Source: a bacterium
GTDB taxonomy: Bacteria > UBA8248 > JACPRG01 > G963555815
Assembly: GCA_965261595.1 (NCBI GenBank)
Contig: CBDHDG010000004.1
Location: 640,001 to 704,000, forward strand
Direction: 5' to 3'
DNA length: 64,000 nucleotides
A program made the position numbers and the translations under genes. The notes under the pieces were generated by a model. The model ran no database searches and was not told where the DNA came from. It saw only the letters and a list, made by a program, of their open reading frames with translations. The stretch's first letter is position 1; the number at the start of each line of letters is the position of its first letter. Below are positions 9,522 to 60,797 of the stretch, in pieces.

Positions 9522-9525
9522 GCCA

Positions 9526-10749: not shown

Positions 10750-10807
10750 CGGGGGGGGGACGCTCCTCCCCTTCGCCCAAACCCGCTGAGCTGAAAGGAA
10801 ATTTTCG

Positions 10808-38122: not shown

Positions 38123-39817
38123 CCCGCATTTCTCACCACCCACTCGGCGGATGGATTATCGGGTGTGAATTGGAGTGTTTTTTCCTGTCTGTCGCTTTTG
38201 CGGTGGAACCAGGGCCGGTGGGTGGTTGGAGTTGACCCGTGAGAGGGGCTTTTTGGCCGATTTGGCTCGGCTCCGCACGCACGTTTGCCTCGACTCCCTG
38301 CGCGTTCATTTTGCAATCTGTCTTAGACGGCGGGCTCTCCCTCCGGCCCCGCGCGCAGGTTCCGCCAGGCGTGGAAGAACACATTCATGTACGGATAACC
38401 CGTCGCAAGGGCCACGTGCACTCGCCGCACGCTCACCCGAACCTGCGCCCCGATCTTCAGCAGCCGCGTCCGCACCGTTCCACACGTTGCCTTTGCAAAC
38501 GCCGTCCCCCGAAGGCCTAGCCGACGCAACGCATGCATCAGTTCATAGGCCACCGCCGACAGGTAGAGCCGCAACTGATTGGAGCGCATCCGCGTGCACG
38601 ACGTCCGGTCCGCGTACAGGTCGAGCTGCTGCTCCTTGAGCCGGTTCTCCATCGTCCCCCGGGCGCAGTAGATGCGCTCGTACAGAGGCTTCGCGTCGAT
38701 CGCCTCCTCGTCCAGCGAAGTCACGATGAAGCGCGGATTGGCGCCCTTGGCCAGGTGCTCGGCCTTGGCGACCACCCGCCGCACCCGGCTCCAGGATGTA
38801 AGCGTCCGGTGAGGAAACGACCGGAATAACCGCGCCCCCTTCCCCGTGCTCTGATGACGCGCCTTCGCTTCGGCCAGCTCGTCCTTCACCGCTTCCTGCA
38901 GCCGGGAGGTCTTGGCCAGGCCGAACACGTAATCCACCCCCTGCGCCTCGCACCAGGCCATGATCCACTCGCGCGAGAAGTCCGAATCCGCCCGAAGCAG
39001 GATCGACACCTGCGGCCAGCGTGCCCGAATCTGGGCAACGATCCGCTCCAACTCCTCCACCACCCCCGAGGAGGCGTCGATATTGGAGGGCCGAAGCCGA
39101 GCGCACAAAAGGAAATCCCCGCAGAAGATGTAAAGCGGAAGGTAGCAGTAATGACCGTGATAGCCGTGGAAGAAACGCCCCTCCTGACAGCCGTGCACCG
39201 GGTCGTCGGTGGCGTCGATGTCCAAAACGATCCGACCCGGCGCCCGCCTCTGCGACCGAAGGAAGCCCTCCACCAACAGCCGGTCGATCGCCTCGCCTCG
39301 GTAGGCGATCTTGTGGTAGCGCTCATCGCCATCGCCCGCAAGACGCTCCAAACGGTTCAGCGTGCTCTTGCCCGCAAGGGCCGGACCCCCCTTGCGCCGC
39401 GTGGCCTCCAGCTTGCCCGAGAGGATCTGGAGCATCGGGTCAAAGCGAAGCCGCTCGTGGTCATTGACGTCCTCATAGCCAAGCGCCAGCGCGTACACCC
39501 GCTGCCGCAACAACGCCCACAACTCATCTTCCACCCGCCTCGCGTCCCGACCGTCCTCAAAACAGGCCGCGAAGCCTGCGATCAGCTTCACCCGCCCCTC
39601 GGTGTCGCGTAGCAAAAGACCGCCCGCATCAGAGGTGATCGCCCCGCCGTTGGAAGTGGCGATCACACGCCGAGAACCCAACCCTTGGAATTCCATCTGT
39701 TCTGCGATACACTGTGTGCGAGTCAAGTCGGTCTCCTTTCTTCGGGCAACCCGTTGATCAAAAAGAGTTTACCCGAAAAAAACCGGCTTGGCTCTCTTTC
39801 TTTGTGAGATATCCAGG
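38123..39817 (-). mobile_element. IS1380-family element A
   Basis: Ends CCCGCATTTCTCAC and GTGAGATATCCAGG; contains an intact transposase. Confidence 0.85.
38323..39726 (-). CDS. IS1380-family DDE transposase
   Basis: TSDAG, GYEDVND, LDIDATDD..HG.QE, LRADS, YCARGTMENRLKE. Confidence 0.92.
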   Translation of the reverse strand: MTRTQCIAEQMEFQGLGSRRVIATSNGGAITSDAGGLLLRDTEGRVKLIAGFAACFEDGRDARRVEDELWALLRQRVYALALGYEDVNDHERLRFDPMLQILSGKLEATRRKGGPALAGKSTLNRLERLAGDGDERYHKIAYRGEAIDRLLVEGFLRSQRRAPGRIVLDIDATDDPVHGCQEGRFFHGYHGHYCYLPLYIFCGDFLLCARLRPSNIDASSGVVEELERIVAQIRARWPQVSILLRADSDFSREWIMAWCEAQGVDYVFGLAKTSRLQEAVKDELAEAKARHQSTGKGARLFRSFPHRTLTSWSRVRRVVAKAEHLAKGANPRFIVTSLDEEAIDAKPLYERIYCARGTMENRLKEQQLDLYADRTSCTRMRSNQLRLYLSAVAYELMHALRRLGLRGTAFAKATCGTVRTRLLKIGAQVRVSVRRVHVALATGYPYMNVFFHAWRNLRAGPEGEPAV

Positions 39818-39897: not shown

Positions 39898-41594
39898 CCG
39901 GGATTTCCCAGATGACCACTCTTAGCCATCCTGCGGTCCTCCTGTGTCATCAAAGTACCCCATTTTACTACAGATTCAGGGTCTCTTTGCAGAACCCTCT
40001 GCTCAATCGAGGGGCAACGGCCGTCCTAAAGCCGCAATCCCTTGAAAACCCAGCTCTACCGGCACACTCAGGGGAGTTCGGCACAGACTGATCCCCCGTC
40101 TCCACCACGTCACTAAGCTTCCGGGCCATCTGCTCCGTCATCCGGTATCTGGTACGGGAGGCGGTAACCACAACCGTCGAATTCGTTCAAGGATTGCCCT
40201 GAACAGTTGACGCGGCACGGCCACCTCGGCCATCTGGAAGGTGGTGTACCGGGCGTGGGTGACCACCTTGGCCCCAATCTTAATCAGCTTCTCGCGTAAC
40301 GTCGTCAGCGACCAGTGCTTCACCGCTCTGGGCAACGCCAGCCGCCGCAGGAAGTTTGCCAGGTTGTACGCCAAGGCAAATAGTTGCAAGCGAACCTGGT
40401 TCTCTTCAAAGCCGTGGCAGGACAGGCGCGTCCAGTTCAGGGCGTACTTGCCCTCCTTGATCCACTGCTCCGCCGTCCCACGCTGGTTGTAGAACCTCAC
40501 GACGTTCTCTTCCCGCCAGTGCAGGTTGGTCACGATGAAGCTGACTCTTGGAAACAACTCGCCCTGGTGCCACTCGACCGCCACCACCACCCGGCGAGGC
40601 TTCTCCCAACTAGCCGCCTGATAGGGGAGACGCTGTGGTAGAAGATAATGGGCCTTTTGGGCGGTCGGCCAACCGGCCGGGTCAGAAGGTATTCGATGTC
40701 CCTGTACAAGATGGCGTTGGCCGGAAGCCGAATCGCATAGGAGTAGCCCTCCGCCTCAAGGTATCGGTACACCTCCGGCTTGGCAAATGCCGCGTCGCCT
40801 CGAAAAAACCGACAGACCTTCGCATCCCGGTAGCGAGCTACCACCGGCTCCAATACAGACCGCCAGTCATCAGCGCTGTGGACCTTGCCGTTGCGCAACA
40901 GCGCCCGCTCCAGATCGCCAAACTGGTTGAAGCAAAACAGTGGGTGATAGCAGGTGCAGCCGAAGTGGCCGTTGTAGGAAGAGCCTTCCTGCTCACCGTG
41001 GGTCGGGCTGACCGAACTGTCCATGTCCAGGATCAGCTTGCGAATCGGCTTGCGTTTGCGGACACGATCCACCAACACACCGGGCAGACCGCTCAGCGCC
41101 TTGAGGGGTTAAGGGGCCGGGTGAGGGTCTGCGTCTCGAATCGGCTCATCTGGCTGGTGGAGGCAGCGGTGTGATACTTCGCTCGCCCCCCAACCACCTG
41201 ACGCATGGCGGGATCGACACAGAGCCGCTCGGCATCATTGGTGTCTTTATATCCTGCCAGGCGGCTGTAGACCGACTGGCGCACCAAAGCGGTGAGGCTG
41301 TGCCGGGTGTTCCCGCCCGTCCGTGAATCGGACAGAAACCCCTCGGCCGCCTTCGTTAGCCCCAACACCTCATCCAGTTCACGATAGGCAAGCAAACCGG
41401 CGTCACTCGTAACCTTTGCTCCATGAAACTCCAGCCTGAGCCGACCGTCGAATTGGAGCCTCAACGGCCTCTTTTTCGCTTCACCCATCGGGTCCCCTCG
41501 CAAGATGATGGCAGGGAGAGGCCAACACCTTGATTTTACACGAGAAAACGGCCTTCGGGGCGTTAATAATTATCATCCATATGGGAAATGCGGG
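39898..41594 (-). mobile_element. IS1380-family element B (distinct from A)
   Basis: Ends CCGGGATTTCCCAGATG and CATATGGGAAATGCGGG; TCGA duplicated at 38119-38122 and 41595-41598 around A+B. Confidence 0.85.
40138..41488 (-). pseudogene. IS1380-family transposase, frameshifted (near 41090 and 40630)
   Basis: Three consecutive ORF pieces with TSDAG, LDMDSSVSPTHGEQE, RGDAAF and YNQRGTAEQWIKEGK. Confidence 0.85.
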
Positions 41595-46710: not shown

Positions 46711-46962
46711 TCAAACGGCAATCCCGCCCGCGATGGGCGGAAAGATTCCAACCACGTCCCCTTCGGCCAGACGCTCCTCCGCTGAAACCTGCCGGTGATT
46801 CCGCATCAAGAGATTCACCTCCTCCCGCGGGATCCCCATGCGCCGGATGATGTCGGACACCCGGGCCCCCTCGGGTAAATCCAGGGTGGAGCGCTTCCCG
46901 CGCCGGTCTTCCGGCGGAAGATACCCGATGAAGTGCGCAAAGACCCGGACCTCAATTCTCAC
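46711..46962 (-). CDS. MoaD/ThiS-family sulfur carrier with a C-terminal GG-IAV extension
   Basis: MRIEVRVFA...L.EGDVVGIFPPIAGGIAV; start overlaps the larC end. Confidence 0.8.
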   Translation of the reverse strand: MRIEVRVFAHFIGYLPPEDRRGKRSTLDLPEGARVSDIIRRMGIPREEVNLLMRNHRQVSAEERLAEGDVVGIFPPIAGGIAV

Positions 46963-48190
46963 GGCGCAGGACCTCTCTGGCCGCCGCGAGGGCCTCCTCG
47001 TGCACCCGCCGGAGGGGAACCCCTTGCTCCCGCGCCGCCCGGCGGCAATCCTCGTACTCGGGCGACACCCCCGGGTCCGGCCCCCCGCACGGGGAAGACA
47101 CCTTGACCCTCAGCGGGCCGTATCGCGTCCGCACCGTCATCTCGCGGCGCGCGACCGCCAGCCGGTCGGTCCAGGTCCAACGGACGCCGAGGCTCGATGT
47201 CTCTCGCAGGACCGCATGCACGAGGGCGCTCTTCTTCTCTGGCCGGCCCAACACGGAGAGGAGGATTCCGGGGCGGGATTTCTTCATGCCCACCGGCGTC
47301 CAATAGACATCCAACGCCCCCTCCGCGAAGAGGATCTCACCCACGTGCTCGTAGAACTCGGGGTTCATGTCGTCGATGTTGGCCTCGATGAGGACCAGGC
47401 GCTCGATGACCGCTCCCCCGCCCTCCCCATCCATCCCCTCTTCCACCGGCTCCCCCAGGACGAGCCGCAAGACGTTGGGCCGTTCCAGGTCCCGGGTTCC
47501 CGCGCCGTACCCCACGGCCTTGAGCCGCATGGGCGGCATGGGGCCGAAGGCGTCCGCCAGCGTCGTCAACAGGGCCGCGCCGGTCGGCGTCACGAGCTCG
47601 GCCTCGATCCCGGTCCCCCGAACCGGCACATCCCGGACCAGCTCCAGCGTGGCCGGGGCCGGAACGGGCTGTTGTCCGTGGGCGGAGCGGATGAACCCGG
47701 CGCCCAAAGGGAGCGGCGAAGCCTCGACGCGCCCGACGCCCAACAGGGCGAGGCCCGCGACCGCTCCCACGATGTCCGCGATGGCGTCCAGGGCCCCGAC
47801 TTCGTGGAAATGGACCTCCTCAATCCCGATGCGGTGAATCCGGGACTCCGCCTCGGCCAGACGGCGAAAGACCCGCAGGCTCTTCTCCTTCACCGCCTCC
47901 GAGAGGGCGCTCGATTCGATGATCCGCCGGACCTCGGCGTAGCGGCGGTGTTCGTGGCGCTCCTCCCCCGGGGGAGGGTGGGAGGGGGGGCGGGCCGGGG
48001 TCACGACATCCACCTTTGTGGCGCCGAACCCGTTCTTCTTGACGGACCTTGCGCGCAAGGACAGGCCCGGCAAGCGAAGCCGGTCGATCTCCCCCTGAAG
48101 GTCTTCGATGGGAAGACCCGCGTCCACCAGGGCCCCCAGCGTCATGTCTCCGCTGACGCCCGACACGCAGTCGAAGTAGGCGAGCGTCAC
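46952..48190 (-). CDS. larC: Nickel pincer cofactor nickel insertase LarC
   Basis: FDCVSGVSGDMTLGAL, VHFHEVGALD, HG..PVPAPAT, ELVTPTGAA, EANIDDMNPE, MKKSRPG, ETSSLGVR, PEYED. Confidence 0.93.
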   Translation of the reverse strand: MTLAYFDCVSGVSGDMTLGALVDAGLPIEDLQGEIDRLRLPGLSLRARSVKKNGFGATKVDVVTPARPPSHPPPGEERHEHRRYAEVRRIIESSALSEAVKEKSLRVFRRLAEAESRIHRIGIEEVHFHEVGALDAIADIVGAVAGLALLGVGRVEASPLPLGAGFIRSAHGQQPVPAPATLELVRDVPVRGTGIEAELVTPTGAALLTTLADAFGPMPPMRLKAVGYGAGTRDLERPNVLRLVLGEPVEEGMDGEGGGAVIERLVLIEANIDDMNPEFYEHVGEILFAEGALDVYWTPVGMKKSRPGILLSVLGRPEKKSALVHAVLRETSSLGVRWTWTDRLAVARREMTVRTRYGPLRVKVSSPCGGPDPGVSPEYEDCRRAAREQGVPLRRVHEEALAAAREVLRREN

Positions 48191-48951
48191 GTCCCGATCC
48201 GGTTGATTTTGTCGGCCTGAACCGCGGCGCCAAACCCGTTGTCGATGTTCACCACCGAAACCCCCGGGGCGCAGGAATTAAGCATGGCGAGCAGCGCGGC
48301 CAGCCCGCCGAAGCTCGCCCCGTAGCCGACGCTCGTCGGGACCGCGATGACCGGGCAGTCCACCAGCCCGCCGACAACGCTCGGCAGCGCCCCCTCCATC
48401 CCCGCCACGACGATGATCACCCGGGCCTTGCGGAGGATCGGCCACCTGTCGAGCAATCGCGGAAGGCCGGCCACGCCCACGTCGTAAACACGCTCCACCC
48501 GGTTGCCCCACGCCTCGAGCGTGAAGGCCGCCTCCTCGGCGACGGGATAATCCGCCGTCCCGCCGGAAGCCACCGCCACCCGGCCGAATCCGTCCCTCGG
48601 CGAAGCCGGGGGCTCACGGCGGATGAGAGCGATGCGGGCCTCGGGGTTGCACTCAAATGGAAATCCCAGGGATTCCAGGGCCCGCGCGGATTCCGGCGGG
48701 AGCCGGGTCGCCAGGACCATGTCCTCGCCGCCCCTCAGAATCTCCCGGGCGATGTCACGGGTCTGATCCGGCGTCTTCCCCTCGGCGAAGATGACTTCGC
48801 CGCGTCCGGTCCGCAGGGCCCGGTGATGATCGACCTTCGCGAAGCCGAGATCGGTGAAAGGCATCGCCCGGAGGCGATCGAGGGCCTCCTCCGGGGCGAC
48901 CCGGCCCGCCTCGACCTCGATCAGCAAGGACCTCAGGCGATCAACGTTCAT
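48187..48951 (-). CDS. larB: Nickel pincer cofactor carboxylase/hydrolase LarB
   Basis: DHHRALRTG..EVIF.EGKT, GTADYPVAEEA, DVGVAG, AGMEGALPSVVGGL, PTSVGYG, VVNIDNGFGA. Confidence 0.93.
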   Translation of the reverse strand: MNVDRLRSLLIEVEAGRVAPEEALDRLRAMPFTDLGFAKVDHHRALRTGRGEVIFAEGKTPDQTRDIAREILRGGEDMVLATRLPPESARALESLGFPFECNPEARIALIRREPPASPRDGFGRVAVASGGTADYPVAEEAAFTLEAWGNRVERVYDVGVAGLPRLLDRWPILRKARVIIVVAGMEGALPSVVGGLVDCPVIAVPTSVGYGASFGGLAALLAMLNSCAPGVSVVNIDNGFGAAVQADKINRIGT

Positions 48952-49816
48952 GCGCGAAAACGGGTGTGGAGATGACCGGCAGCGGGATCGACCCGGGACG
49001 ATCGGCGGGCGGCCCGTTCAGGCTCCCGGTGCGGTACCCCTTCAGGTCTACGGAGACCTTGGGAAACCCGATCCGCTGAAACGCGCGAGAGACCGCGTCC
49101 ATCATGCCGGGCTCGAAGAACCGGGCGATCTCCCCCGCCTCCACCTCGATCCGGGCCAACGGTCCGTGGTGGCGGACCCGGAGCTGGCGAAAGCCGAGCC
49201 CCCTCAAATGGGCCTCGGCCCGCTCCACCGTCCTGAGCTTCTCGGCGGTCACCCGCTGTCCCCGGGGAATCCGCGAGGCCAGACAGGCCATGGCCGGCTT
49301 GTCCCAGGTGGGCAGCCCCATCGCCTTGGAGAGGACGCGAATCTCCGCCTTGGTCAGGTCCGCCTCCAGCAAGGGGCTGCGAACGCCGTACGCCCGCGCG
49401 GCCGCCCGCCCGGGCCGCTCATCGGACAGGTCGTCCGGGATTGTGCCGTCCGCCACGCAGGCGATTCCCTCGCGGTCCGCAATCGAGACCAGCCGGCGGA
49501 AAAGCTCTTCCTTGCAGAAAAAGCACCGGTCGGCGGCATTGGCGGCGTATCGCGGATCGGCCAGCTCCCGGGTGTCGATCTCGAGGAGACGGATGCCGAT
49601 CCGCTCGGCCACGCGCCGGGCCTCGGCGAGATCGGACGCCGGAAGAGAGGGCGACCGCCCCGTCACCGCGAGGGCGCCGTCGCCCAGGACGCGCCTTGCG
49701 GCGTCGGCCAGAAAGGCGCTGTCCACCCCGGCGGAGAACGCCACCAGGACGCTTCCCATCCGGAGGAGGATCGTTTCCAGATTCCGGTGTTTCTGTTTCG
49801 TCGGCGGGGGGATCAA
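48941..49816 (-). CDS. larE: ATP-dependent sulfur transferase LarE (CxxC-C, Fe-S type)
   Basis: PP-loop SAGVDS, RCFFCK, DD..D.RPG, SPL, WDKPAMACLASRIP, RVRHHG, GYRTGS. Confidence 0.92.
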   Translation of the reverse strand: MIPPPTKQKHRNLETILLRMGSVLVAFSAGVDSAFLADAARRVLGDGALAVTGRSPSLPASDLAEARRVAERIGIRLLEIDTRELADPRYAANAADRCFFCKEELFRRLVSIADREGIACVADGTIPDDLSDERPGRAAARAYGVRSPLLEADLTKAEIRVLSKAMGLPTWDKPAMACLASRIPRGQRVTAEKLRTVERAEAHLRGLGFRQLRVRHHGPLARIEVEAGEIARFFEPGMMDAVSRAFQRIGFPKVSVDLKGYRTGSLNGPPADRPGSIPLPVISTPVFAHER

Positions 49817-51278: not shown

Positions 51279-51884
51279 ATGTCACGGAAGCGAAGCCTTT
51301 GGGCCGCGCTCATCGCGTGGGTCCTTCTCGTTCCGCCGGCCCCAGGCCCGGCGGCGGCGAAGAAAGACCGGGGAAAATATTCCTCCTCCTCCTCCCCCTT
51401 TCGGATTCTCAAGCGCCGTCCGAAGTTCGGTCTCGTCCGATTCCCGAAAGCGCGCCCCTCGCCTGAATTCAGCCTCCCGGATCTCGAAGGGAAAATCGTC
51501 CGCCTTTCGGACCTTCGCGGCAAGGTGCTGGTCTTGAATTTCTGGGCCACCTGGTGTCCCCCCTGCGTGGAAGAAATGCCCAGCCTCGAGAAGCTCCACC
51601 GGCATTTCCAGGGAAGGCCGTTCGAGGTGGTCGCTGTCTCGGTAGACGCCGAAGGTGTGGAGAAGGTCCGGGAATTCGTGAAAAAAGGAGGATTCACCTT
51701 CCGGGTCCTGCACGACCGGAAAAAGACGACGGAGCGCCCTTTCGGCGTCCGCGGCCTTCCGATCTCCTACGTGATCGACACCAAAGGGAGGATGGTGGCG
51801 GGGGCCATCGGGGCCAAGGATTGGGCCTCGAAGAAGGCTTACGCGTACTTCGAGGGGCTTTTGAAGGGTGTTTCGAGCCCATAG
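51279..51884 (+). CDS. Exported TlpA/ResA-family disulfide reductase
   Basis: Signal peptide; LNFWATWCPPCVEEMP; GLP cis-Pro loop. Confidence 0.9.
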   Translation: MSRKRSLWAALIAWVLLVPPAPGPAAAKKDRGKYSSSSSPFRILKRRPKFGLVRFPKARPSPEFSLPDLEGKIVRLSDLRGKVLVLNFWATWCPPCVEEMPSLEKLHRHFQGRPFEVVAVSVDAEGVEKVREFVKKGGFTFRVLHDRKKTTERPFGVRGLPISYVIDTKGRMVAGAIGAKDWASKKAYAYFEGLLKGVSSP

Positions 51885-52071: not shown

Positions 52072-52860
52072 ATGGCTCGTCATGGTCTCCGCGTAATCGT
52101 CCTCCTCCCCCTCCTCCCCTTCCTCGCCGGCTTCGCCGGGATTCTCGCCGAGACATGGGGTCAGGCGGGAATTCCCCGCGACGATGCTCCGATGGCCCGG
52201 GTCCCCGCCGGTGTATTCCTGATGGGCGATTCGCGCGGGGCGCTCACCGAGCGGCCCCAAATCCGGGTCCACCTGGACGCCTTCGAGATCGACGTTCACG
52301 AAGTCACGAACGTGCGGTACGCCCGGTTCATGCGGGCGCGGCGCAAGACGGGAAGACCCGTCAGGACACCCGATTATTGGGACTCCCCCGCATTGAATCC
52401 GCCGCGGCATCCCGTGGTCGGGCTGACTTGGCAGTAGGCCCGGGCCTACTGCGCCTGGGCCGGAAAACGCCTTCCCACCGAGGCCGAATGGGAAAAGGCC
52501 GCGCGCGGAACGGACGGTCGGAGGTATCCGTGGGGGGACGCCTTCGGCGCCGGCAGGGCCAACGCCGCGCCGGCGGGTCTGAACCGGCCGGCGCCGGTGG
52601 GGTCCTTTCCTTCCGGGCGAAGTCCGTACGGACTGGAGGACATGGCGGGAAACGTCTGGGAGTGGACGGCCACGCCTTACGGGGCTTACTACTACCGGGT
52701 CTCTCCCCCGCGGAATCCCCGGGGCCCTCGTGACGGATGGCTGAAGGTCATTCGCGGCGGTTCCTGGATGAACGGGCCGGATCAGGTCCGGACGAGCGTG
52801 CGCTTCCGGCTGGACCCCGTCGTGAAATGGAAGCGCGTGGGCATGCGCTGCGCCCGCTGA
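52072..52860 (+). CDS. Exported FGE-sulfatase-domain (SUMF1/NirV-like) protein interrupted by an in-frame TAG at 52435-52437
   Basis: [75 protein letters not shown] all in one frame. Confidence 0.8.
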
Positions 52861-53021: not shown

Positions 53022-53743
53022 GTGAATCGAATTCGATGGATGGCCCTGGGGATTGTGCTCCCCGCGATGTTCTGGACTTTTTCCGCGTGGGGTTACGAGG
53101 TCGTCGAGGTAAAGGACGGCGGCGCGGTGAGCGGAACAATCACATTCGAGGGACAGGCCCCGGCGCCGAAAGAATTGCGCGTCACCAAAACGAAAATGTC
53201 TGCGGGGTGAAGCCCTTATTTTCCCAGGAGTTCGTCGTCTCCAAGAAGGGGGCGCTCAAGAACGTCGTGATTTCGCTGGTCGGCGTTGAAAAGGGCAAGG
53301 CCTTCAAGAAGAAATCCGCCCGGCTGATTCAGCGGCAGTGCATGTTCGTCCCGCACGTCGCCCTGATCCCGGTCGGAAAGCGGTTCAAACTCGTCAACGA
53401 GGACAAGCTCCTCCACAACCTCCGGACCCTATCGAAAGAGAACGTCGCCCTGAACATCGCCCACCCGAAGTTCAAAAAGACCCTCCGGATCAAGAAGAAG
53501 TTCAAGAAACCCGAAATCATGCGGATCAAATGCGACATCCATTCCTGGATGGACGGGTGGATCATCGCCATCGCTCACCCCTACTACGTCGTATCCAAAA
53601 AGTCCGGCCGGTTCACCCTGAAGAACGTCCCCCCGGGCGCATACAAGCTCCGGGCCTGGCACGAGATCCTGGGCGAACAGGTCCAAACCGTCACGGTCCC
53701 CGCCGGCGGAGAGGTGAAGGCCGATTTCACTTTCAAGAAATAG
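53022..53743 (+). CDS. Exported cupredoxin-like / carboxypeptidase-regulatory-like domain protein, frameshift near 53190
   Basis: Signal plus GAVSGTITFEG, then in the next frame QRQCMFVPHV, N.D..LHN, KCDIHSWM, HPYY, G.FTLKNVPPGAYKLRAWHE. Confidence 0.75.
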
Positions 53744-53753: not shown

Positions 53754-54905
53754 ATGAGCCCCCTGCCGCCCTCCGGCGCCCGAGCGCGCTCCGCGAGCCG
53801 TTCGCGCCCCTCCGCCCAAGGGCGATGCCCCCGCCTTGGGCGGGCCTGTCGCGCCCTCCTCGCGGGATTCCCCGCTCCGTCTTCCGCCCACCACGTCAAG
53901 ATGCGGTCCGGCCCCTTCGGCGGAATGGTCAGCTCCATTTCCATCCACCCCTCGGACCCGCGAAGGATTTACGCGGGGGTCTTCGGCACTGGTGTCTTCG
54001 GCGCGGGGGTCTACCGCTCGGACGACGGCGGGACCCTTTGGACCGCGAAATCCAGGGGCCTGACGGACACCGGCGTCTACAGCGTCCTCGTCCTCCCGGC
54101 AGGCGGAACCGTCCTGGCGGCCACGAACACCGGGGTTTTCCGGTCCGTGGACGGGGGTGAATCGTGGAAGCCGTCGAATCGCGGACTCCCCGATACAGGG
54201 GTCCGGATGTTCGCCCCCCTGTCCGAAAGCCACATCCTGGCCGCAACCGGGTCGGGGGTGTTTCGCAGCCGCGCCGGGGGAAAGACCTGGGCGGATGCGT
54301 CCGAAGGGCTCACAAACCAGGACGTCCGATGGCTTACCGTCGAGCCCGACGCGAAGAGAACGATCTTCGCGGCCACCTTCGGGGGCCTTTTCGAGAGCCG
54401 GGACGGCGGACGGACCTGGCGGGAAAAGGGTCTCTCCCTCCCCCCACTGCGCACGGCCATTGTGGCGGCGGGGGGACGGACGGTGATCGCCGGTTCGGCG
54501 AACCGGGGCGCCTTCATCAGCCTGGACGGGGGCGCGACGTTCAAACCCGCGAATGAAGGCCTCCCCAGCCCCTACATCATGGCCCTCGGATTCTCGGCGG
54601 CGGCGGGGGAGGAAGAAGGAGCAGAGGGATCTCCACCCATCTTCCTGGCCGGGACCCTCGGCGGATTGTACGTGAGCCGCAACGGAGGAAGCCGTTGGAA
54701 TTACCTGTCGAGCGACATGACGAACCTGTCCATTACGGCCTTCGCCGTCCATCCGAAGGACCCGAAGATGATTTTCGCCGCCACCGGCGGCCTGATCTTC
54801 CGGACGGCCGATGGAGGCCGCACTTGGACGAACCAGGCGCGCTGGGTGATCCATCATGCGGGGAGATTGAATCCGGCGCGGGGAAAATCCTTCGCCGGCC
54901 GGTGA
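53754..54905 (+). CDS. BNR/Asp-box beta-propeller protein (VPS10/YCF48-like); true start uncertain
   Basis: Multiple SxDGGxTW repeats (RSDDGGTLW, RSVDGGESW, ESRDGGRTW, ISLDGGATF, VSRNGGSRW, TADGGRTW). Confidence 0.8.
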   Translation: MSPLPPSGARARSASRSRPSAQGRCPRLGRACRALLAGFPAPSSAHHVKMRSGPFGGMVSSISIHPSDPRRIYAGVFGTGVFGAGVYRSDDGGTLWTAKSRGLTDTGVYSVLVLPAGGTVLAATNTGVFRSVDGGESWKPSNRGLPDTGVRMFAPLSESHILAATGSGVFRSRAGGKTWADASEGLTNQDVRWLTVEPDAKRTIFAATFGGLFESRDGGRTWREKGLSLPPLRTAIVAAGGRTVIAGSANRGAFISLDGGATFKPANEGLPSPYIMALGFSAAAGEEEGAEGSPPIFLAGTLGGLYVSRNGGSRWNYLSSDMTNLSITAFAVHPKDPKMIFAATGGLIFRTADGGRTWTNQARWVIHHAGRLNPARGKSFAGR

Positions 54906-54999
54906 ACGGTTGCGGGACCGCCGGCCTGATCCGTGATTGCGAATGACCGTGGGCGCATGCGCCAAAGGAGAGAAGCTCCATGAAAGGGAGGGAAGTTCC

Positions 55000-55719
55000 A
55001 TGAAAGGGAGAAACCGGAAGTGGTTGGGCGTTTCCTTGCTGGCCCTGGCGTTTGCCGTCAGCGGGCCGATGGGCTGGACGCAAACGTCCGACGCCGCAAA
55101 GAAGGCCAATCCATGTAACCCATGCGCCGCGAAGAAGGGAAATCCGTGTAATCCGTGCGCGGCCAAGGGAAATCCATGCAATCCCTGCGCGGCGAAGAAG
55201 GCCAATCCGTGCAACCCATGTGCGGCCAAGAAGGCCAACCCATGCAACCCGTGCGGGGTCAAAGCCAAGGCGAATCCGTGCAACCCGTGCGCGGCCGGCG
55301 GCGGCCGGAAGGGCCCCCGGGCCAAGGCCCGGATGATCATCGGGAAGGTGCTCTACGCGAAAGGCAATTACGTGGCGGTCCAGTGGAAGGGCGCGAAAAT
55401 CAACATCGGCGTCCACGCCAAAACGCAGTACTCCCGCGGACCCGCCAAATCCTCCCTCGGCTCGATCAAGCCGGGAGAGCGGATCATCGTTTCGATGATG
55501 GATCGGGGCGGCAAACTGAGCGCCAACTACGTCTACCTGTCCAAGGCCTCGAAGGGCGGAAACCCCTGTAACCCATGCGCGGCCAAAGGGAATCCCTGCA
55601 ACCCGTGTGCGGCCAAGAAGGCCAACCCGTGCAACCCATGCGCCGCCAAAGGAAATCCCTGCAATCCATGCGCGGCGAAGAAGGCCAACCCGTGCAACCC
55701 GTGCGCGGCCAAAAAGTGA
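55000..55719 (+). CDS. Exported protein with 6 N-terminal and 5 C-terminal NPCNPC repeats flanking a small beta-rich (OB-fold/DUF5666-like) domain
   Basis: GGGAGG RBS, signal peptide, 11 NPCNPC units (22 Cys); core GKV...V...T.Y.....SLGSIKPGERIIV.......A..V. Confidence 0.85.
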   Translation: MKGRNRKWLGVSLLALAFAVSGPMGWTQTSDAAKKANPCNPCAAKKGNPCNPCAAKGNPCNPCAAKKANPCNPCAAKKANPCNPCGVKAKANPCNPCAAGGGRKGPRAKARMIIGKVLYAKGNYVAVQWKGAKINIGVHAKTQYSRGPAKSSLGSIKPGERIIVSMMDRGGKLSANYVYLSKASKGGNPCNPCAAKGNPCNPCAAKKANPCNPCAAKGNPCNPCAAKKANPCNPCAAKK

Positions 55720-55805
55720 TTGCGGCTTGTGCCGACGGATTCCGAGCGGGATTCGAAAGAGACGCGTCCAAACGCGGAACACTCGAACTCAAGGGAGGTC
55801 AATCA

Positions 55806-56435
55806 ATGCTTCGATCATGGACGAGGGTCTCGGCGGCCCTCCTCGCAGCGGTGGTGATGACGGCCGGGACGGCCGCAATCGCCTCCGCCCAGAAAAAGAA
55901 GACCATCCCCATGGGGCCCTATTTTCAAACGCTCCAGAAGGATGCGTCCATCGCCGCCGCCATCAAGCGGGGAAAGCGGCAGTTCAACCAACTGGGTTGC
56001 GCTGGCTGTCATCCGCGCGGGGGCACCATCGGCGGAACCGCCCGGGCGGTCGACGGAAGCCCGGTGCCCGTTCCCATTCCCCAGCTCGTGGGCGCGGCCC
56101 TTCACTACCCGCGCCTATCGATGACGGGGTTCGCGGCGAACATCGGCATCATGAACGACCTCTGAAACACGATCTTTCTCGGCCGTGAGCCGATGGATCC
56201 CAATTCCCAGCAGTACATGGACCTGTACGCCTACGTCGCCTCTCTTACACCGGCGGTCAAAAAGGAGATGCTCCGGTGGGAGAAAGAGCGCCAGGCCCTG
56301 ATGAAGAAAATCATGAGCAAGGGCGGGGGCGGCAAAGGCAACCCCTGCAACCCGTGCGCGGCCAAAGGGAACCCGTGCAATCCTTGCGCGGCCAAGAAGG
56401 CCAATCCGTGCAACCCATGCGCGGGGAAGAAGTAA
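55806..56435 (+). CDS. Exported c-type cytochrome selenoprotein (209 aa, Sec at codon 120, UGA 56163-56165) with a C-terminal NPCNPC tail
   Basis: GGAGG RBS, signal peptide, CAGCH heme motif, then IMNDL-U-NTIFLGREPMDPNSQQYMDLYAYVASL in frame, ending with 3 NPCNPC units and TAA. Confidence 0.8.
56166..56199 (+). promoter_or_regulatory. Bacterial SECIS-like hairpin
   Basis: GATC...TCGGC-CGTGA-GCCGA..GATC; loop G 20 nt after the UGA. Confidence 0.65.
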
Positions 56436-56460
56436 GAAACGCACGCTGTTTGATATAATT

Positions 56461-56498
56461 GAAAGGGGGACGGTTGCGAGGCCGTCCCCCTTTCGATT
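56461..56498 (+). terminator. Strong hairpin, probable terminator or mRNA stabiliser after the Sec cytochrome
   Basis: 13-bp perfect stem GAAAGGGGGACGG / CCGTCCCCCTTTC. Confidence 0.6.
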
Positions 56499-56552
56499 TG
56501 GTTCCGCGAAAAAATTCGGCGCGGATGAACACTGAAGATGGATGGAGAAACG

Positions 56553-57317
56553 ATGAACGCATTCCGGAGACTCTTCGTCGGCGGCATTTTCCTGGCCGTC
56601 GGGTGGGCGGCGTCGCCCGCGATAAGCGCCGAAATCAAGGGCGACCTGGAACAGGGCAAAGACGTCTACGAGGAGATCTGCTTCTCATGCCACGGCGCCA
56701 GAGGGGACGGGAAGGGCCCGAGCTTCCGGAACACGATGCCCTACCCCCAGGTTTTCGCGAATCCCAACTACATGAAGCGCCTGACGCCGCAATACATGTT
56801 CGACGTGGTGAAGTTCGGCAAGCTCGCCGTCATCAAAGGCGAGAAGCAGACCGGGAAGTACGACGTCCTGCCCATGCCCGGGTTCGAGGATTCCCTGGAG
56901 GACGGGGAGATCCGCGGTCTGATCGCCTATGAGAAGTTTCTCCTGACCGGAAAGTGGAACCCACCCAAAGGAAGTGAATTCACGCAAGCGGATATGAAGG
57001 AGTACTTCGACGGGGCCTGCGCCGAGTGCCACGGCCCGAAGGGCAAGGGAAACGGGGACAAGGCGGTCGGAAAGCAGGACCCCGGCAAACCGTTCGTCAG
57101 CGTCGCCCAGCCCGCGCCCGCCGACCAGACCGACCCCCTCCTCATGGCCCGGTTCAACGACGAGTTCATCTTCTGGCTGATCAAGAAAGGCCGCATCGCC
57201 GTCACCGAAGAGAAGAACTTCGACATCATGAAACCCTACGGACACGTCATGAGCGACGAGGAGATCTGGAGCGTCGTGCGGTACGTGTGGGAAACGTATA
57301 TCGAAAAGAAAAAGTGA
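56553..57317 (+). CDS. Diheme c-type cytochrome
   Basis: Signal peptide; CFSCH...MPGF and CAECH...MKPY (Met axial ligands). Confidence 0.88.
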   Translation: MNAFRRLFVGGIFLAVGWAASPAISAEIKGDLEQGKDVYEEICFSCHGARGDGKGPSFRNTMPYPQVFANPNYMKRLTPQYMFDVVKFGKLAVIKGEKQTGKYDVLPMPGFEDSLEDGEIRGLIAYEKFLLTGKWNPPKGSEFTQADMKEYFDGACAECHGPKGKGNGDKAVGKQDPGKPFVSVAQPAPADQTDPLLMARFNDEFIFWLIKKGRIAVTEEKNFDIMKPYGHVMSDEEIWSVVRYVWETYIEKKK

Positions 57318-57385
57318 GGCGGGCTTCTCGGAAAAGAGAAGCGGCCGACCCGTCCGGCGTTCGTTCTTCGAGGCGCGCGGCAATC

Positions 57386-58597
57386 CTACGGAAGCAGAAT
57401 CGTTCTATCGTACAGGACATACGGCGAAGACATCGCGTGGGCGCGGGCCTTCTCGATCAGTCCGCGCGCCCGGGCGCTCATCCGGCCCTGGAGAAGCGAA
57501 GGGAAGAACGTCGCGCCGTAGTAATCGTCGGGATGGACCTCCACGAAGACGTGGAGGCGCTTCGCCCCCCGGGGGTTGGGCGCGTTGTAGTCGAAGACGC
57601 GGGTCTTCCCGGGGGGGATGCGCGTGTCCGACCGCTCGACCCAGCCGCCTTCGTATTCAAGCCGGCGTTGGATGCGGTCCGCCCGGCGGCTCCCCTCGAT
57701 GGTCTTTCCATTCTCGTCGAGCAGCTCCACCTTGATGAAGACGGCCGGAATCATGTACGTCGGAAACATGTGACCCGCCCCGGTGTTGGTCAGGGTGATT
57801 CGCGCGACGGCCCGGCCCGGAACGGCCTCCTTCCCCCGGGGGACCACAACGCCCAGCGTCACCGCCCGGGCCGTCATCTCCTTGTCGTGAATGCCCCGCC
57901 ACAGGTGCTTGCGCCCCGGCATGTGGCAATCCTGGCACTGAACGCCCAGCTTTGAATACGGCCCTTCTTTCCACTCCACATACGTGTTCTCAATCGGCTT
58001 TCCGTTAACGGCCGCCGACATCGGATGCTGGTGGCACGTCCGGCAAAACTCCGACCGCTCGAAGGCGGTCGTCCGGGTTACGCCTCCGTGGGGCGATTTC
58101 TCCACGCTGGGTCCAAGGGATTTCCCCGCCTTCGGCGGGCCGAACCGCTCGTGCCCCCGCACGTGACAAGCGGCGCAGATCAGCCCCCCCTTCTCCAAAT
58201 CTTTCACGTAGCCCTCGTTCCTGACGACCGTCCCCGACCGCCCGACCCGATAAGGCTGCTGCTCGGCCAGGGGGGCGTGACAACCCACGCAGTCCTCCGC
58301 CCCGGCGGGATTGTCCACCCACTGGCCGACCACGCCCGGGCCCATGGCCTTGGCGTGAAGACTCGTCTTCCAGTCAGCGAGCTGGGCGGGGTGGCAAGCC
58401 CCGCAGGACTGGGGATCGAGCGCGCTTTCCAAGGGAGAGAACCCTTTGGGCGGCTTCCCGTTGGGCGCGAACGGAGATTGCCAGTGCTTGGCGACGAACG
58501 CTTCGATCGCCGGGTCCGGCGACTGGGCCGGGGCCTGGTCCGAAGAGAGCAGGAAGAAACCGGCGCAAGCGACGACGCGAAAAAATGTTTGCCGCAT
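57386..58597 (-). CDS. Pentaheme c-type cytochrome (c554/c552-like)
   Basis: Signal peptide; CGACH, CVGCH, CAACH, CRTCH, CQDCH; W..S.HA; GAGHMFPT. Confidence 0.88.
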   Translation of the reverse strand: MRQTFFRVVACAGFFLLSSDQAPAQSPDPAIEAFVAKHWQSPFAPNGKPPKGFSPLESALDPQSCGACHPAQLADWKTSLHAKAMGPGVVGQWVDNPAGAEDCVGCHAPLAEQQPYRVGRSGTVVRNEGYVKDLEKGGLICAACHVRGHERFGPPKAGKSLGPSVEKSPHGGVTRTTAFERSEFCRTCHQHPMSAAVNGKPIENTYVEWKEGPYSKLGVQCQDCHMPGRKHLWRGIHDKEMTARAVTLGVVVPRGKEAVPGRAVARITLTNTGAGHMFPTYMIPAVFIKVELLDENGKTIEGSRRADRIQRRLEYEGGWVERSDTRIPPGKTRVFDYNAPNPRGAKRLHVFVEVHPDDYYGATFFPSLLQGRMSARARGLIEKARAHAMSSPYVLYDRTILLP

Positions 58598-58627
58598 TTT
58601 CAGCGATTGATCCTCTCAGGGAAGACG

Positions 58628-58672
58628 AAAAGAAAAGACCCGGGAGGATTTTCCTTCCCGGGCCTTCTTTTT
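58628..58672 (-). terminator. Intrinsic terminator (possibly bidirectional) downstream of the repeat peptide gene
   Basis: AAAAGAAAAGACCCGGGAGG...CCTTCCCGGGCCTTCTTTTT. Confidence 0.65.
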
Positions 58673-59017
58673 ATCAGAATCCAGCCGAAATCAACAATCG
58701 ATTGCTACTTCTTGGCCGCGCAAGGATTGCAGGGGTTGGCCTTTTTCGCCGCGCACGGGTTGCAAGGATTGGCCTTCTTCGCAGCGCACGGGTTGCAAGG
58801 ATTGGCCGCCACCTTGGCCGCGCACGGGTTTGCAGGGGTTGGCCTTTTTCGCGGCGCACGGGTTGGCCTTCTTGTGCCAGGCCGCGTCACTCACCCCGGA
58901 TCCCGCGACGAACAGGACCGCGACCGCCGCCACCAGGAAACTACACAACAGTCCCCCGCTCTAGGGTTTTGTTGGACACTCGATTGATCCATGATTCATG
59001 GAGAAAGGGGTGTCGCG

Positions 59018-59404
59018 ATGAACGAACAAAAGCAAGAGGGGGCTTTGGCGGAGGGCGCCCGCAGGGCGAACGGAGCCAAGGCCCCAGGGCATCGCAGTGA
59101 GCGGGGTCGGTTCTCCTGCCAGCGCAAGCGGGAGGCGGTCCTGCGTCTTTTGCGGGGCGAGAGCCTGGAGACGCTCTGCCGCGAGTTGGGCACGACAGCG
59201 GCTCGGCTTTCCGCCTGGCGCGAGGCGTTCCTTCGCGGGGGCGAGGCGGCGCTCAAAGCCCGCCCGGCGGATGAGCGGGACGAGGAGAACGCCCGGCTCA
59301 AGGCCAAGGTGGGCGAACTCACGATGGAGGGCGAGGTCCTGCGGGAGAAGATCGACCGCCTGGAGGCCGGCCGCCCTTTAGCCGGCAGGAGGTGGAGGCG
59401 ATGA
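59018..59404 (+). CDS. IS3-family transposase OrfA
   Basis: Near-identical to 22087-22473. Confidence 0.85.
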   Translation: MNEQKQEGALAEGARRANGAKAPGHRSERGRFSCQRKREAVLRLLRGESLETLCRELGTTAARLSAWREAFLRGGEAALKARPADERDEENARLKAKVGELTMEGEVLREKIDRLEAGRPLAGRRWRR

Positions 59405-60309
59405 GTCAGGCCCGCTTCACCTCCACGGGCAGAGCCTACGGCCTGAAGCGGGTGTGCGCCCTTTGGGGCTTGGCGCGCTCCACGGTCTACGCGCAACGGC
59501 GGCGAGAGGCGGTCCCCGTTCATGAACGCCCCACGCCCAATAAGCGCGGCCCTGTGGGCCCGTGCACCGATGCGGAACTCCTCGGCCACATCCGGCAGGT
59601 CCTGGAGGACTCTCCCTTCCATGGCGAGGGCTACCGCAAGGTGTGGGCGAGGCTGCGCTTCGCGGGCATCCGCACCAGCAAGGAGCGGGTGCGTCGCCTG
59701 ATGCGGGAGGCGGGGCTTCAGGCCCCCCACCGGGTGGGCAAACCCCGAGGTCCCAAGGCCCACAACGGGACCATCCGCACCGAGCGGCCCGACCGAGTGT
59801 GGGGCACGGACATGACGACGACGGTGACCACCGAGGAGGGGATGGCCTCGGTGTTCGTGGCGGTGGATCACTGCTCGGTGGACTGCGTGGGGATCCATGC
59901 GGCCAAGAGCGGCAACCGCTTCGAGGCCCTGGAGCCGATCCGGCAGGGGGTCGCCGAGCGCTTCGCCGGCTTGGAGGCGGACGTCGCCGAGGGGCTTAAA
60001 GTTCGTCACGACCACGGCCCCGCCTATCTGTCCGATGACTTTCAGCGGGAGATCGCCTACCTGGGCATGACCAGTTCGCCCAGCTTCGTGCGGGCGCCCG
60101 AGGGAAATGGCTACTGTGAGTGGTTCATCCGCATCTTGAAGGAGAATCTCCTGTGGGTGCGCTCTTTCGCCACCGTAGAGGAACTGCGGTGGGCGCTGCT
60201 TGAGTTCAAGAACCTGTACAACCATCATTGGATTCTCGAGGGCTACGGCTACCGAACGCCGGCCCAGGCAAGGCAGGAAAAACTCGCTCAAGTTGCGGAG
60301 GCCGCATGA
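59401..60309 (+). CDS. IS3-family transposase OrfB
   Basis: Near-identical to 22470-23378; DDE motifs. Confidence 0.9.
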   Translation: MSQARFTSTGRAYGLKRVCALWGLARSTVYAQRRREAVPVHERPTPNKRGPVGPCTDAELLGHIRQVLEDSPFHGEGYRKVWARLRFAGIRTSKERVRRLMREAGLQAPHRVGKPRGPKAHNGTIRTERPDRVWGTDMTTTVTTEEGMASVFVAVDHCSVDCVGIHAAKSGNRFEALEPIRQGVAERFAGLEADVAEGLKVRHDHGPAYLSDDFQREIAYLGMTSSPSFVRAPEGNGYCEWFIRILKENLLWVRSFATVEELRWALLEFKNLYNHHWILEGYGYRTPAQARQEKLAQVAEAA

Positions 60310-60797
60310 GGTCGAATACCCTCACCCGAGTGTCCAATAACCCAGGGGCGGTCCAACAGTTTCTTCATGCTCTCTTCTCCCTCTCGTTTTGTAATGGTTC
60401 CCACTTGGAAGACAAAGATTGACCGTCCGGATCACTCGGGCGCCGGATTGAGGGCTTCCCCGGAGACTCGACTTCATCCCCTCTCCCCCTGGATTCAAGC
60501 ATCGCCACTTCTCTGATAACCAAAAAGAAGAGGAGAAATTTCATGGATCGTTGAAATCGTCTAAATTTTTCTTCCACCGGCCTTACCCCCGGCAGGCCGG
60601 ACATCCGGGCCAACCTTGCCCGGCCCGAGCGCAAAGTCATTCCTCCGCCCCTTCAGGACCGCGCGTTCTCATTCGGAGGCTGATATACTGGCAAGGGAAC
60701 CATCACCCGAACCCGACCCAAGAACCTTTGAACGCTCCACTTCGGCCGGGATCCCCCGGATTGCAGGCCCATCGTTTCATGCGGAGGAACCGAGCCC

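Follow-up and report, generated by a model that had tools for sequence, protein, structure and literature searches.

A 64 kb stretch of bacterial DNA, referred to throughout as the window, encodes a cysteine-rich repeat based on the tripeptide Asn-Pro-Cys (NPC) in three neighbouring genes. P0001 carries repeat arrays on both sides of an OB barrel, P0002 is a SoxA-like cytochrome with an in-frame TGA codon, and the third, on the opposite strand, is a small peptide gene that has been broken by an insertion. The features of the three genes are as follows.

55000..55719, plus strand: P0001, consisting of a signal peptide, an NPC array, an OB barrel and a second NPC array (translation).
55108..55290, plus strand: N-terminal NPC array of P0001, six NPCNPC units (pattern match and translation; predicted local distance difference test score, pLDDT, below 50).
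55324..55539, plus strand: OB-fold core of P0001, residues 109-180 (AlphaFold2 and Foldseek).
55561..55704, plus strand: C-terminal NPC array of P0001, five NPCNPC units (pattern match and translation).
55806..56435, plus strand: P0002, a SoxA-like monohaem cytochrome c whose residue 120 is predicted to be selenocysteine and whose C-terminus is an NPC tail (translation with TGA as U; Pfam).
56163..56165, plus strand: in-frame TGA read as selenocysteine (TGA kept in the related loci L049 and L084).
56171..56199, plus strand: hairpin, a candidate bacterial selenocysteine insertion sequence (SECIS), 8 nt 3' of the TGA (-14.8 kcal/mol, z-score -0.87).
56340..56420, plus strand: C-terminal NPC array of P0002, three units (pattern match and translation).
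58705..58951, minus strand: 3' piece of the small NPC peptide gene, with the rest of the signal peptide, an A-W-H mature start and NPC units in two frames.
58829..58831, minus strand: 1-nt frameshift in an A-run inside the fourth NPCNPC unit (open reading frames, ORFs, in two frames).
58952..60355, plus strand: IS3-family insertion sequence (IS) inside the peptide gene (IS3 transposase model and target duplication).
60356..60368, minus strand: 5' piece of the small NPC peptide gene, the start and three codons, with a GGAG-type ribosome-binding site just upstream.

The 18-mer obtained by back-translating NPCNPC, AAYCCNTGYAAYCCNTGY, has 17 exact matches in the 64 kb of the window and none in 100 shuffles of it. 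All 17 fall within 55108-58803, with eleven in P0001 (6+5), three at the C-terminus of P0002 and three on the minus strand at 58720-58803. A first-pass annotation of this DNA had counted about 18 units; pattern matching and translation confirm the six N-terminal and five C-terminal units of the OB-fold-like protein and the three on the cytochrome, but the "4 units plus one NPC" given for the peptide can be obtained only by reading across the frameshift. Among the 17 matches 16 distinct 18-mers are found, their mean pairwise nucleotide identity is 0.84, and the differences are all synonymous. The codons AAT and CCA, which are rare in the window, are over-used in the repeats in comparison with nine long window genes, and exact repeats within the P0001 gene reach 23 nt at most. 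These codon data rule out chance low complexity or slippage as the origin of the repeat. It is strongly supported that the NPC repeat is held by selection on the peptide and is not the result of recent slippage, which is the conclusion that the first-pass annotation had drawn from the variation in codons.

The same repeat is present in hundreds of other bacteria, most of them marine. A word-seeded search with P0001 returned 1057 proteins of 131-419 aa at E up to 1e-3, plus a further 52 of 420-2000 aa. When 1.84 billion cluster representatives were scanned exhaustively with HMMER, 288 matched at E up to 1e-3, with 53 reaching 1e-10. At the DNA level, a pattern scan of one genome per species, in which one NPCNPCAAK unit was required, identified at least 125 stretches, and flanks were available for 80 loci (L numbers below). 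Among the listed matches, the hosts include marine Alphaproteobacteria (Pelagibius, Denitrobaculum, Hwanghaeella, Sneathiella, Kiloniellaceae and Thalassospiraceae), Gammaproteobacteria (Granulosicoccaceae, Leucothrix, Thioploca, Sedimenticolaceae and Hahella), Sulfuritalea, and also Nitrospinota, Entotheonella, Acidobacteriota, Gemmatimonadota, Planctomycetota, Poribacteria, Leptospirales and others. Cultured carriers are Denitrobaculum tricleocarpae R148, Pelagibius strains, Hwanghaeella sp. 1Z406, Hahella ganghwensis DSM 17046 and Hyphomicrobium sp. NDB2Meth4.

The proteins that carry the arrays are of several kinds. When the top 120 matches are sorted by the place of the haem motif CxxCH, 35 are of the P460 type with a C-terminal haem motif, 53 have the motif in mid-protein and 32 have no haem. 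The mid-protein class is SoxA-like and its arrays usually lie on both sides, and the group without haem comprises P0001-like OB proteins, a YceI protein, fragments, and three DUF6789-like membrane proteins in which a loop carries the array. LysM occurs in 23 and an OmpA-like domain in two of the 52 long matches, and 72 of 139 newly listed representatives are shorter than 140 aa and contain a signal peptide and arrays only. By a simple rule, a signal-like hydrophobic stretch precedes the first NPC in 110 of 129 distinct ORFs with at least four NPC, and the other 19 are mostly truncated, mis-started or lipoprotein-like. A pattern search for fused domains and gene neighbours, which the first-pass annotation had suggested, places the repeat on P460, SoxA-like, OB, YceI, LysM and OmpA proteins and also reveals recurrent neighbours, described below. 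The P460 domain of these proteins is strongly diverged and gave no PDB sequence match with either a single protein or a profile. P460-type NPC proteins (L035 13884-15176 and L057 3958-5250) have a short conserved C-[VI]-[VI]-P-R-L element between two NPC blocks, and a conserved helix ahead of the P460 domain.

Across this set the conserved unit is NPC and not NPCNPCAAKK. Runs of one to four NPC are joined by linkers such as AAK, AAKK, AAKKAC and similar, a single Cys per unit is found in some arrays, for example those of the L049 peptide and of several relatives of P0001, and array length ranges from 2 to more than 30 units, placed at termini, between domains or in loops. In the arrays of 434 proteins, NP is followed by Cys 7313 times out of about 7350 and by another residue about 40 times, and of 38,902 array residues Cys accounts for 22%, Ala 21%, Pro 20%, Asn 19% and Lys 9% (the five together 92%), all of these figures being somewhat inflated by the fact that the arrays were bounded by NPC itself. 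The occurrence of the same, nearly invariant repeat on unrelated exported domains in many phyla, with freely varying copy number and position, strongly supports the first-pass idea of a shared portable tag. No model for the repeat was found in Pfam or NCBIfam with P0001 and five NPC proteins from the loci. A full-text literature search for the NPC motif, DUF6969 and related topics yielded nothing relevant, and the literature on periplasmic metallothionein-like proteins nothing on NPC arrays, with most subscription journals lying outside the coverage of both. Within these models and this literature no characterised family lays claim to the motif, orthologs such as those of P0001 and the peptide in L049 retain the repeats, and the neighbourhood is consistent, with neighbours that recur across loci.

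P0001 itself has no match in Pfam or NCBIfam, and with Pfam opened to E up to 0.01 it reached no family at all, the metallothionein model included. An AlphaFold2 prediction from a 23-homolog alignment gives a confident barrel for residues 109-180 (pLDDT ~96) and predicts both NPC arrays to be disordered (pLDDT <50). The four best Foldseek matches of the core are all CusF (1zeq, 2qcp, 2vb2 and 3e6z; E 2.5e-4 to 7.4e-4, TM 0.67-0.73 on target), and generic OB folds rank next; identity to E. coli CusF is 11-12%, and P0001 has no match to the Pfam CusF family. Judged by the model, the P0001 core resembles CusF in fold and is not a member of the CusF family, and the OB-fold-like label of the first-pass annotation is retained. 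A syntenic ortholog in L049, a metagenome-assembled genome (MAG) of the Nitrospinota, is 70% identical. Look-alikes in the ESM Atlas are unnamed clusters only, plus a weak DUF5666 lead at 0.79. Just 5' of P0001, at 54967-55011, a 20-bp tandem duplication (2.2 copies) doubles the ATGAAAGG start region, and the first ATG is out of frame.

P0002 forms a single reading frame only when the TGA at 56163-56165 is read through. The sole Pfam family reached, Cytochrom_C, spans residues 53-147 and so runs across this codon. TGA is found at the same position in all three Nitrospinota-type genes seen (the window, L049 at 10634-10636, and L084), with conserved protein sequence downstream, and the L104 homolog has Cys. 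In an alignment of 12 sequences that includes NPC-flanked cytochromes from six other lineages, C65, C68, H69 and position 120 are invariant, the last of these being the column in which the other lineages have an invariant Cys. A profile of the family matches the N-terminal haem domain of SoxA (1h31_A, E 4.2e-8), and the conserved Cys aligns to SoxA Cys114, a haem thiolate ligand. The family therefore has the features of the SoxA/TsdA type, namely CxxCH and a conserved distal Cys in the 12 sequences, with haem ligation predicted. The second stem pair of the candidate SECIS hairpin is A-U in the window, G.U in L049 and G-C in L084, which amounts to one compensatory pair, and the folding z-score of the hairpin is weak. 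Rfam, run at a permissive E-value over 54500-59200, found no SECIS nor any other credible RNA family, and a search of the 64 kb of this genome that make up the window detected neither tRNA-Sec nor sel genes.

Because the TGA is conserved, a homolog has Cys in its place and a hairpin with a compensatory pair lies downstream, P0002 is, as judged from sequence, a selenoprotein in which selenocysteine takes the place of the family's haem-facing Cys. This supports the selenocysteine cytochrome of the first-pass annotation. We know of no natural protein in which selenocysteine has been described as a haem axial ligand, and selenocysteine at the position of the SoxA ligand would be unusual by itself and would offer a natural test case for selenolate-ligated haem. 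In the window, L084 and L104 the reading frame continues into the NPC tail. In L049 a second in-frame TGA (10790-10792) comes before the tail and could be either a genuine stop, with loss of the tail, or another selenocysteine codon.

The small peptide gene is split after codon 4 by the IS3-family element. Its 5' piece encodes the basic start of a signal peptide, and the 3' piece continues with the hydrophobic part and a mature part that opens A-W-H-K-K and goes on to three intact NPCNPC units and one broken by an extra base in the A-run. The element is 1404 bp long and is flanked by a 4-bp target duplication, ACAG; a second copy at 22021-23424, with the duplication CTAA, differs from it by 5 mismatches. 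The transposase model NF033516 scores 159.5 bits against a cut-off of 160. Because the two copies differ so little and each has a 4-bp duplication, the element has been active recently in this genome. Owing to the insertion after codon 4 and the 1-nt frameshift, the small NPC peptide cannot be made from the window DNA as it stands, and the stand-alone peptide that the first-pass annotation listed on the opposite strand has to be withdrawn for this genome. An intact, syntenic ortholog exists at L049 13795-14196. Signal peptides, which were called by eye and by a simple hydrophobic-stretch rule, are present on P0001 and P0002 as had been claimed, but on the peptide only if the insertion is disregarded. 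The break in this gene, NPC as the conserved unit, and an FGE-like gene 2 kb upstream, from a family that is a candidate for modifying cysteines, had all been overlooked.

Genes near NPC genes were compared in 73 de-duplicated loci of more than 3 kb, of which 49 have 3 kb of flank on both sides, with ORFs called crudely by length. Many of the 73 come from related Alphaproteobacteria, so some of the following counts reflect shared ancestry.

DUF6969: 31 of 73 loci; 19 of 29 measurable at most 300 bp from the NPC gene, 26 on the same strand.
FGE-sulfatase-like protein: 16 of 73 loci; 14 of 15 measurable at most 300 bp away.
Cupredoxin-like secreted protein: 15 of 73 loci; median distance ~1 kb.
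YedE/TsuA-like transporter: 15 of 73 loci; median ~1.1 kb.
DUF302: 10 of 73 loci; median 2 kb.
Glutathione reductase-like protein: 10 of 73 loci; median ~1.1 kb.
DUF3179: 6 of 73 loci; median ~1.2 kb.
Five-haem cytochrome of the window type: 5 of 73 loci; 4 of 5 within 300 bp.
MNIO (a BufB): 1 of 73 loci (L076); ~4.5 kb away, 383 bits against a cut-off of 310.

A gamma-glutamyltranspeptidase was also found in 5 of the 73 loci, TerB genes lie near L047, L031 and L026, and thioredoxin-fold genes stand beside NPC genes in the window, L049, L006, L044, L076 and L040. The associations with DUF6969, the FGE-like protein and the five-haem cytochrome recur across classes or phyla. An NPC-cytochrome gene is also repeatedly paired with a gene for a small NPC peptide (L059, L042, L076, L016, L040 and the window). 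Other clusters common to at least four loci are housekeeping synteny (YidC, YidD, RNase P, GTPase) or unannotated shadow ORFs. Neighbouring histidine kinases were considered as metal sensors and rejected as generic.

All of the FGE-like neighbours carry the Pfam FGE-sulfatase domain, and they are of three kinds. A C-x4-C pair is present in L015 and L002, an invariant GCGxCR in 13 alpha- and gammaproteobacterial proteins, in which the C-x-x-C is at a shifted place, and the kind found in the window and L049 has no such Cys. DUF6969 has no signal peptide and looks cytoplasmic by sequence. In an alignment that includes L065, L035 and L040 it shows the invariant His-rich motifs H-Y-P, Y-H-x-H and E-x-G-H-F-H, and its AlphaFold2 model is confident (pLDDT 89, predicted template modelling score, pTM, 0.88). 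It gave no PDB sequence match and no Foldseek PDB match better than E 0.39, and DUF6969 is possibly a new metal-binding fold. The cupredoxin-like neighbour has no Pfam, NCBIfam or PDB match, and its label of cupredoxin-like comes from a reading of the alignment. In L076, a Sulfuritalea MAG, a co-directional string of genes at 3684-10111 comprises an NPC cytochrome, an NPC peptide, a five-haem cytochrome, DUF6969, the cupredoxin-like protein, DUF302 and a YedE-like protein, and it ends in a bona fide BufB bufferin maturase.

Further genes around P0001 and P0002 in the window are listed below.

51399..51884, plus strand: TlpA-like thioredoxin with a WCPPC motif (homologs near NPC genes in L049, L040, L076, L006 and L095).
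52072..52860, plus strand: FGE-sulfatase-like gene with a premature TAG at 52438-52440 (Pfam FGE-sulfatase; L049 has GAG at this codon).
53754..54905, plus strand: BNR/Ycf48-like beta-propeller directly upstream of P0001 (syntenic only with L049).
56538..57317, plus strand: dihaem cytochrome c (ortholog in L049; a conserved neighbour only in the Nitrospinota-type locus).
57386..58597, minus strand: five-haem cytochrome, distantly related to ExtKL (51.6 bits; cut-off 250).

The window and L049 share their gene order over the region that stretches from glutamate dehydrogenase to MoaB. This order is a TlpA-like gene, an FGE-like gene, a carboxypeptidase-regulatory-like gene, the BNR propeller, P0001, P0002 and the dihaem cytochrome, followed on the other strand by the five-haem cytochrome and the small peptide. 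The neighbouring TlpA of the first-pass annotation is the TlpA-like gene at ~51399-51884, 3.1 kb upstream, and homologs of the five-haem cytochrome adjoin NPC genes in five lineages (L040, L076, L059, L044 and L049). DUF6969, the cupredoxin-like protein, the YedE-like transporter and DUF302 have no counterpart in the window. The absence of an MNIO or radical SAM maturase, remarked on at first pass, was confirmed for the 55 window ORFs that were scanned, which are not every ORF. The carboxypeptidase-regulatory-like gene is frameshifted in the window at ~53150-53200, so that with the FGE-like gene and the peptide three genes are damaged, by three lesions and one IS in ~8 kb, and this represents either real decay of the locus or assembly error. 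Two other features of the window are larC, larB and larE, for nickel-pincer cofactor synthesis, at 46952-49816, 5-8 kb upstream of the NPC genes, and a second transposase family, DDE_Tnp_1_4, with one intact copy and one split into two ORFs (38323-39726 and 40138-41078).

The NPC repeat is thus real, under selection, portable, carried on exported-looking proteins, predicted to be disordered and accompanied by conserved neighbours. As to what it does, we tentatively favour, at rather less than an even chance, the view that NPC arrays are disordered thiolate arrays serving as high-capacity ligands for soft metals, probably copper. Of the four functions that the first-pass annotation had put forward, a metal binder is the one preferred here, and the sulfur or selenium carrier, the substrate modified in trans and the cross-linking element are kept as rivals. 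The preference is based on the ATCUN-like N-termini of some NPC proteins, the Met/His-rich variants, the CusF-like core of P0001 and the neighbours from copper families. Because the carriers are so diverse (P460, SoxA-like, OB, YceI, LysM, OmpA and membrane loops), the unit number varies freely and arrays also occur alone, the function would appear to lie in a generic chemical property of the array and not in one specific to a partner.

In such a scheme the NPC repeat would be a portable, disordered, lysine-rich thiol array, exported to the periplasm either on carriers or as free small peptides. Where a mature protein starts with X-X-His or His-His, this N-terminus might capture Cu(II), and the copper could then be held as Cu(I)-thiolate by CNPC pairs whose thiols are kept reduced by TlpA-type thioredoxin-like reductases. 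NPC arms on cytochromes may buffer or store metal beside the enzyme, the two arms of P0001 would flank a CusF-like barrel, and the free peptides would be the soluble form. We infer all four elements of this scheme, that is metal binding, which metal is bound, the redox state of the thiols and the hand-over of metal.

X-X-His at a free N-terminus is an ATCUN Cu(II)/Ni(II) site. AXA-type cleavage followed by X-X-His is found in 51 of 381 non-redundant NPC proteins with a signal-like stretch, against a mean of 20.6 and a maximum of 36 in 500 shuffles, and a His-His start in 23 of the 381, against a mean of 4.5 and a maximum of 10. Typical mature starts are (E/D)-H-H-E or A-(Y/W)-H straight after an AXA-type site, and the mature parts of the window peptide and its L049 ortholog open A-W-H. 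In a subset of arrays (L059, P0240, P0261, P0286 and P0302) Met/His/Lys linkers replace Ala/Lys, and a Met/His-rich composition is that of periplasmic Cu(I) sites. According to PMC12452194, FGE is a cuproenzyme, bufferin domains that bind copper occur as fusions with Cytochrom_C and FGE-sulfatase domains, and some exported proteins contain repeated EGKCG motifs. The bufferins thereby offer a close parallel from another family.

Several observations weigh against copper or another soft metal. None of CopA/HMA, Cus, multicopper oxidase, CopCD, Sco or CueR/CopRS was found among ~200 scanned neighbour proteins (138+40+20). An ATCUN-like start occurs in only ~13% of the proteins (51/381), and P0001 has none. 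The P0001 barrel has no invariant Met, His, Cys or Trp across 23 homologs, and the metal ligands of CusF, His36, Met47, Met49 and Trp44, are not conserved in it. In the oxidising periplasm the cysteines may form CNPC disulfides. The FGE-like gene of the window lacks active-site cysteines and is interrupted by a stop codon. Finally, the YedE-like transporter, DUF302, glutathione reductase and the SoxA-like and selenocysteine chemistry point equally to sulfur or selenium.

On this last account, which we consider unlikely but worth serious attention, NPC arrays are carrier arms whose cysteines bear persulfide or selenotrisulfide adducts of sulfane sulfur, thiosulfonate or selenium. Loading or unloading would fall to the attached haem domain, much as SoxAX loads the cysteine arm of SoxY, and free peptides would carry in trans. 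The match of the P0002 family to the N-terminal haem domain of SoxA, with its Cys at Cys114 and selenocysteine there in the window, is in keeping with such a role, and so are the pairs of NPC-cytochrome and NPC-peptide genes in five loci and the window. The neighbours named above are consistent with it too (YedE/TsuA-like in 15 of 73 loci, DUF302 in 10, glutathione reductase in 10, gamma-glutamyltranspeptidase in 5), as are TerB near L047, L031 and L026 and hosts that are sulfur oxidisers by name (Thioploca, Leucothrix, Sedimenticolaceae, Sulfuritalea and Granulosicoccaceae). However, the arms are also attached to the OB barrel, YceI, LysM/OmpA proteins and membrane loops, which have no sulfur chemistry, and Sox, SQR, rhodanese, TusA and DsrE genes were not seen among the scanned neighbours. 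The SoxY arm motif is GGCGG, and it is absent from NPC arrays. The second TGA before the tail in the L049 ortholog of P0002 also implies that the tail may be dispensable for the enzyme. It is slightly less likely still, in our estimate, that the arrays are instead substrates of a modifying enzyme, with an FGE-like protein and/or DUF6969 converting the NPC cysteines, before or after export, to formylglycine or another oxidised residue. The array would become active once modified, possibly as a metal ligand as in bufferins, so that this reading is compatible with later metal binding. It would account for the FGE-like gene lying at most 300 bp from the NPC gene in 14 of 15 measurable loci, in Alphaproteobacteria, Gammaproteobacteria and Acidobacteriota, and for the canonical C-x4-C in L015 and L002 and the invariant GCGxCR of the alpha- and gammaproteobacterial subfamily. 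DUF6969, found in 31 of 73 loci, may have a metal centre, to judge by its invariant His-rich motifs, and a BufB-type MNIO closes the L076 operon. The core motif of FGE substrates is C-x-P-x-R, and although every Cys of a run but the last precedes x-Pro, as in the C-x-P part of that motif, its Arg is absent, the units reading C-N-P-C-A or C-A-A-K, and arrays of single units (NPCAAK) lack even the C-x-P part. Moreover, the FGE-like proteins fall into three subfamilies of which the window/L049 type lacks active-site Cys and is a pseudogene in the window, 37 of 73 loci have neither an FGE-like gene nor DUF6969 (with 3 kb of flank on both sides in only 49), MNIO occurs in only one locus of 73, and DUF6969 has no signal peptide whereas the NPC proteins have Sec-type ones.

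A structural role seems quite improbable to us. On this view the arrays would act as proline-rich spacers stapled by disulfides, or as cross-linking stickers, tethering or co-assembling exported proteins in the envelope, and would have no role as ligands. Such a role would suit the predicted disorder of the arrays, their range of 2 to more than 30 units and their insertion at termini, between domains and in loops, as well as the bivalent form of P0001, with two arms on one small core, and the LysM domain in 23 and OmpA-like domain in two of the 52 long homologs, both of them peptidoglycan binders. Yet free peptides of signal peptide and array are common (72 of 139 shorter than 140 aa), and a spacer would be useless alone. 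The near-absolute conservation of all three NPC residues exceeds what a spacer needs, and the His-rich starts and Met/His variants are left unexplained. Two further uses of the cysteines were rejected: Fe-S binding by CxxCxxC runs, because Fe-S proteins leave the cytoplasm already folded while these signal peptides are of the Sec type and have no twin arginines, and extra haem attachment by CxxC pairs, because the His of CxxCH is missing.

Returning to soft-metal binding, a fuller version of this view would make the array an unmodified or lightly modified exported metallothionein arm, present on haem enzymes and as free peptides, served by its own machinery (DUF6969, the CxxC-type FGE-like protein, the cupredoxin-like protein and the YedE-like transporter), and with selenocysteine as a haem axial ligand in the SoxA-like cytochrome; as a whole this is doubtful. 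If the arrays do bind copper or another soft metal, they would represent widespread and so far unrecognised buffering or hoarding of trace metal in marine and low-oxygen bacteria. The hosts include nitrite oxidisers of the Nitrospinota and denitrifying Alphaproteobacteria, and copper limits enzymes of the nitrogen cycle. Runs of NPC after a signal peptide also provide a sequence handle for finding DUF6969, the variant FGE-like genes and the cupredoxin-like genes.

Among known systems, the closest in working principle are probably the oxazolins and bufferins on one side and the metallothioneins on the other, and by sequence the NPC proteins appear to fall outside each. Oxazolins and bufferins are exported Cys-motif peptides that bind copper after modification by MNIO. 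They share with the NPC proteins a Sec signal peptide, short Cys/Lys motifs repeated many times (as in Buf_EGKCG and HvfA), a periplasmic location and occasional fusion or adjacency to cytochrome c and FGE-sulfatase domains (PMC12452194, PMC11626156 and PMC11252979). The motif is nevertheless EGKCG or of the DUF2282 type and not NPC. Their partner is MNIO, which is found in 1 of 73 NPC loci and was not seen in the window, whereas the partners of NPC genes are DUF6969 and FGE-like proteins, and NPC arrays are mostly appended to enzymes. Profiles for BufA, Buf_EGKCG and HvfA in Pfam and NCBIfam matched neither P0001, P0002 nor five NPC proteins from the loci. Metallothioneins and the copper storage proteins (Csp) of methanotrophs are similar in their very high Cys content, CxxC pairs, few aromatics, variable length and proposed thiolate-cluster binding. 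In contrast to them, NPC arrays are Sec-type exported, built on one tripeptide unit and appended to other domains, and they have no Pfam metallothionein match; Csp fold into four-helix bundles.

CusF, the periplasmic Cu(I)/Ag(I) chaperone of E. coli, is comparable with the P0001 core in its small OB barrel and compartment, but identity is only 11-12%, there is no Pfam match, the ligands are not conserved in the P0001 family and CusF lacks Cys arms. SoxAX with SoxY, and TsdA, offer a parallel in the SoxA-related haem domain, the conserved Cys after CxxCH and a flexible Cys arm on the enzyme or encoded beside it. The P0002 domain differs in having one haem and in resembling the non-catalytic N-terminal domain of SoxA, its arm has many Cys in another motif, no soxYZB lie nearby, and the residue at the ligand position of the Nitrospinota-type proteins is, by prediction, selenocysteine. 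From these comparisons the NPC repeat would seem to be a previously undescribed element that joins the exported cysteine-motif arrays, with a gene set of its own and a putative ligand of its own.

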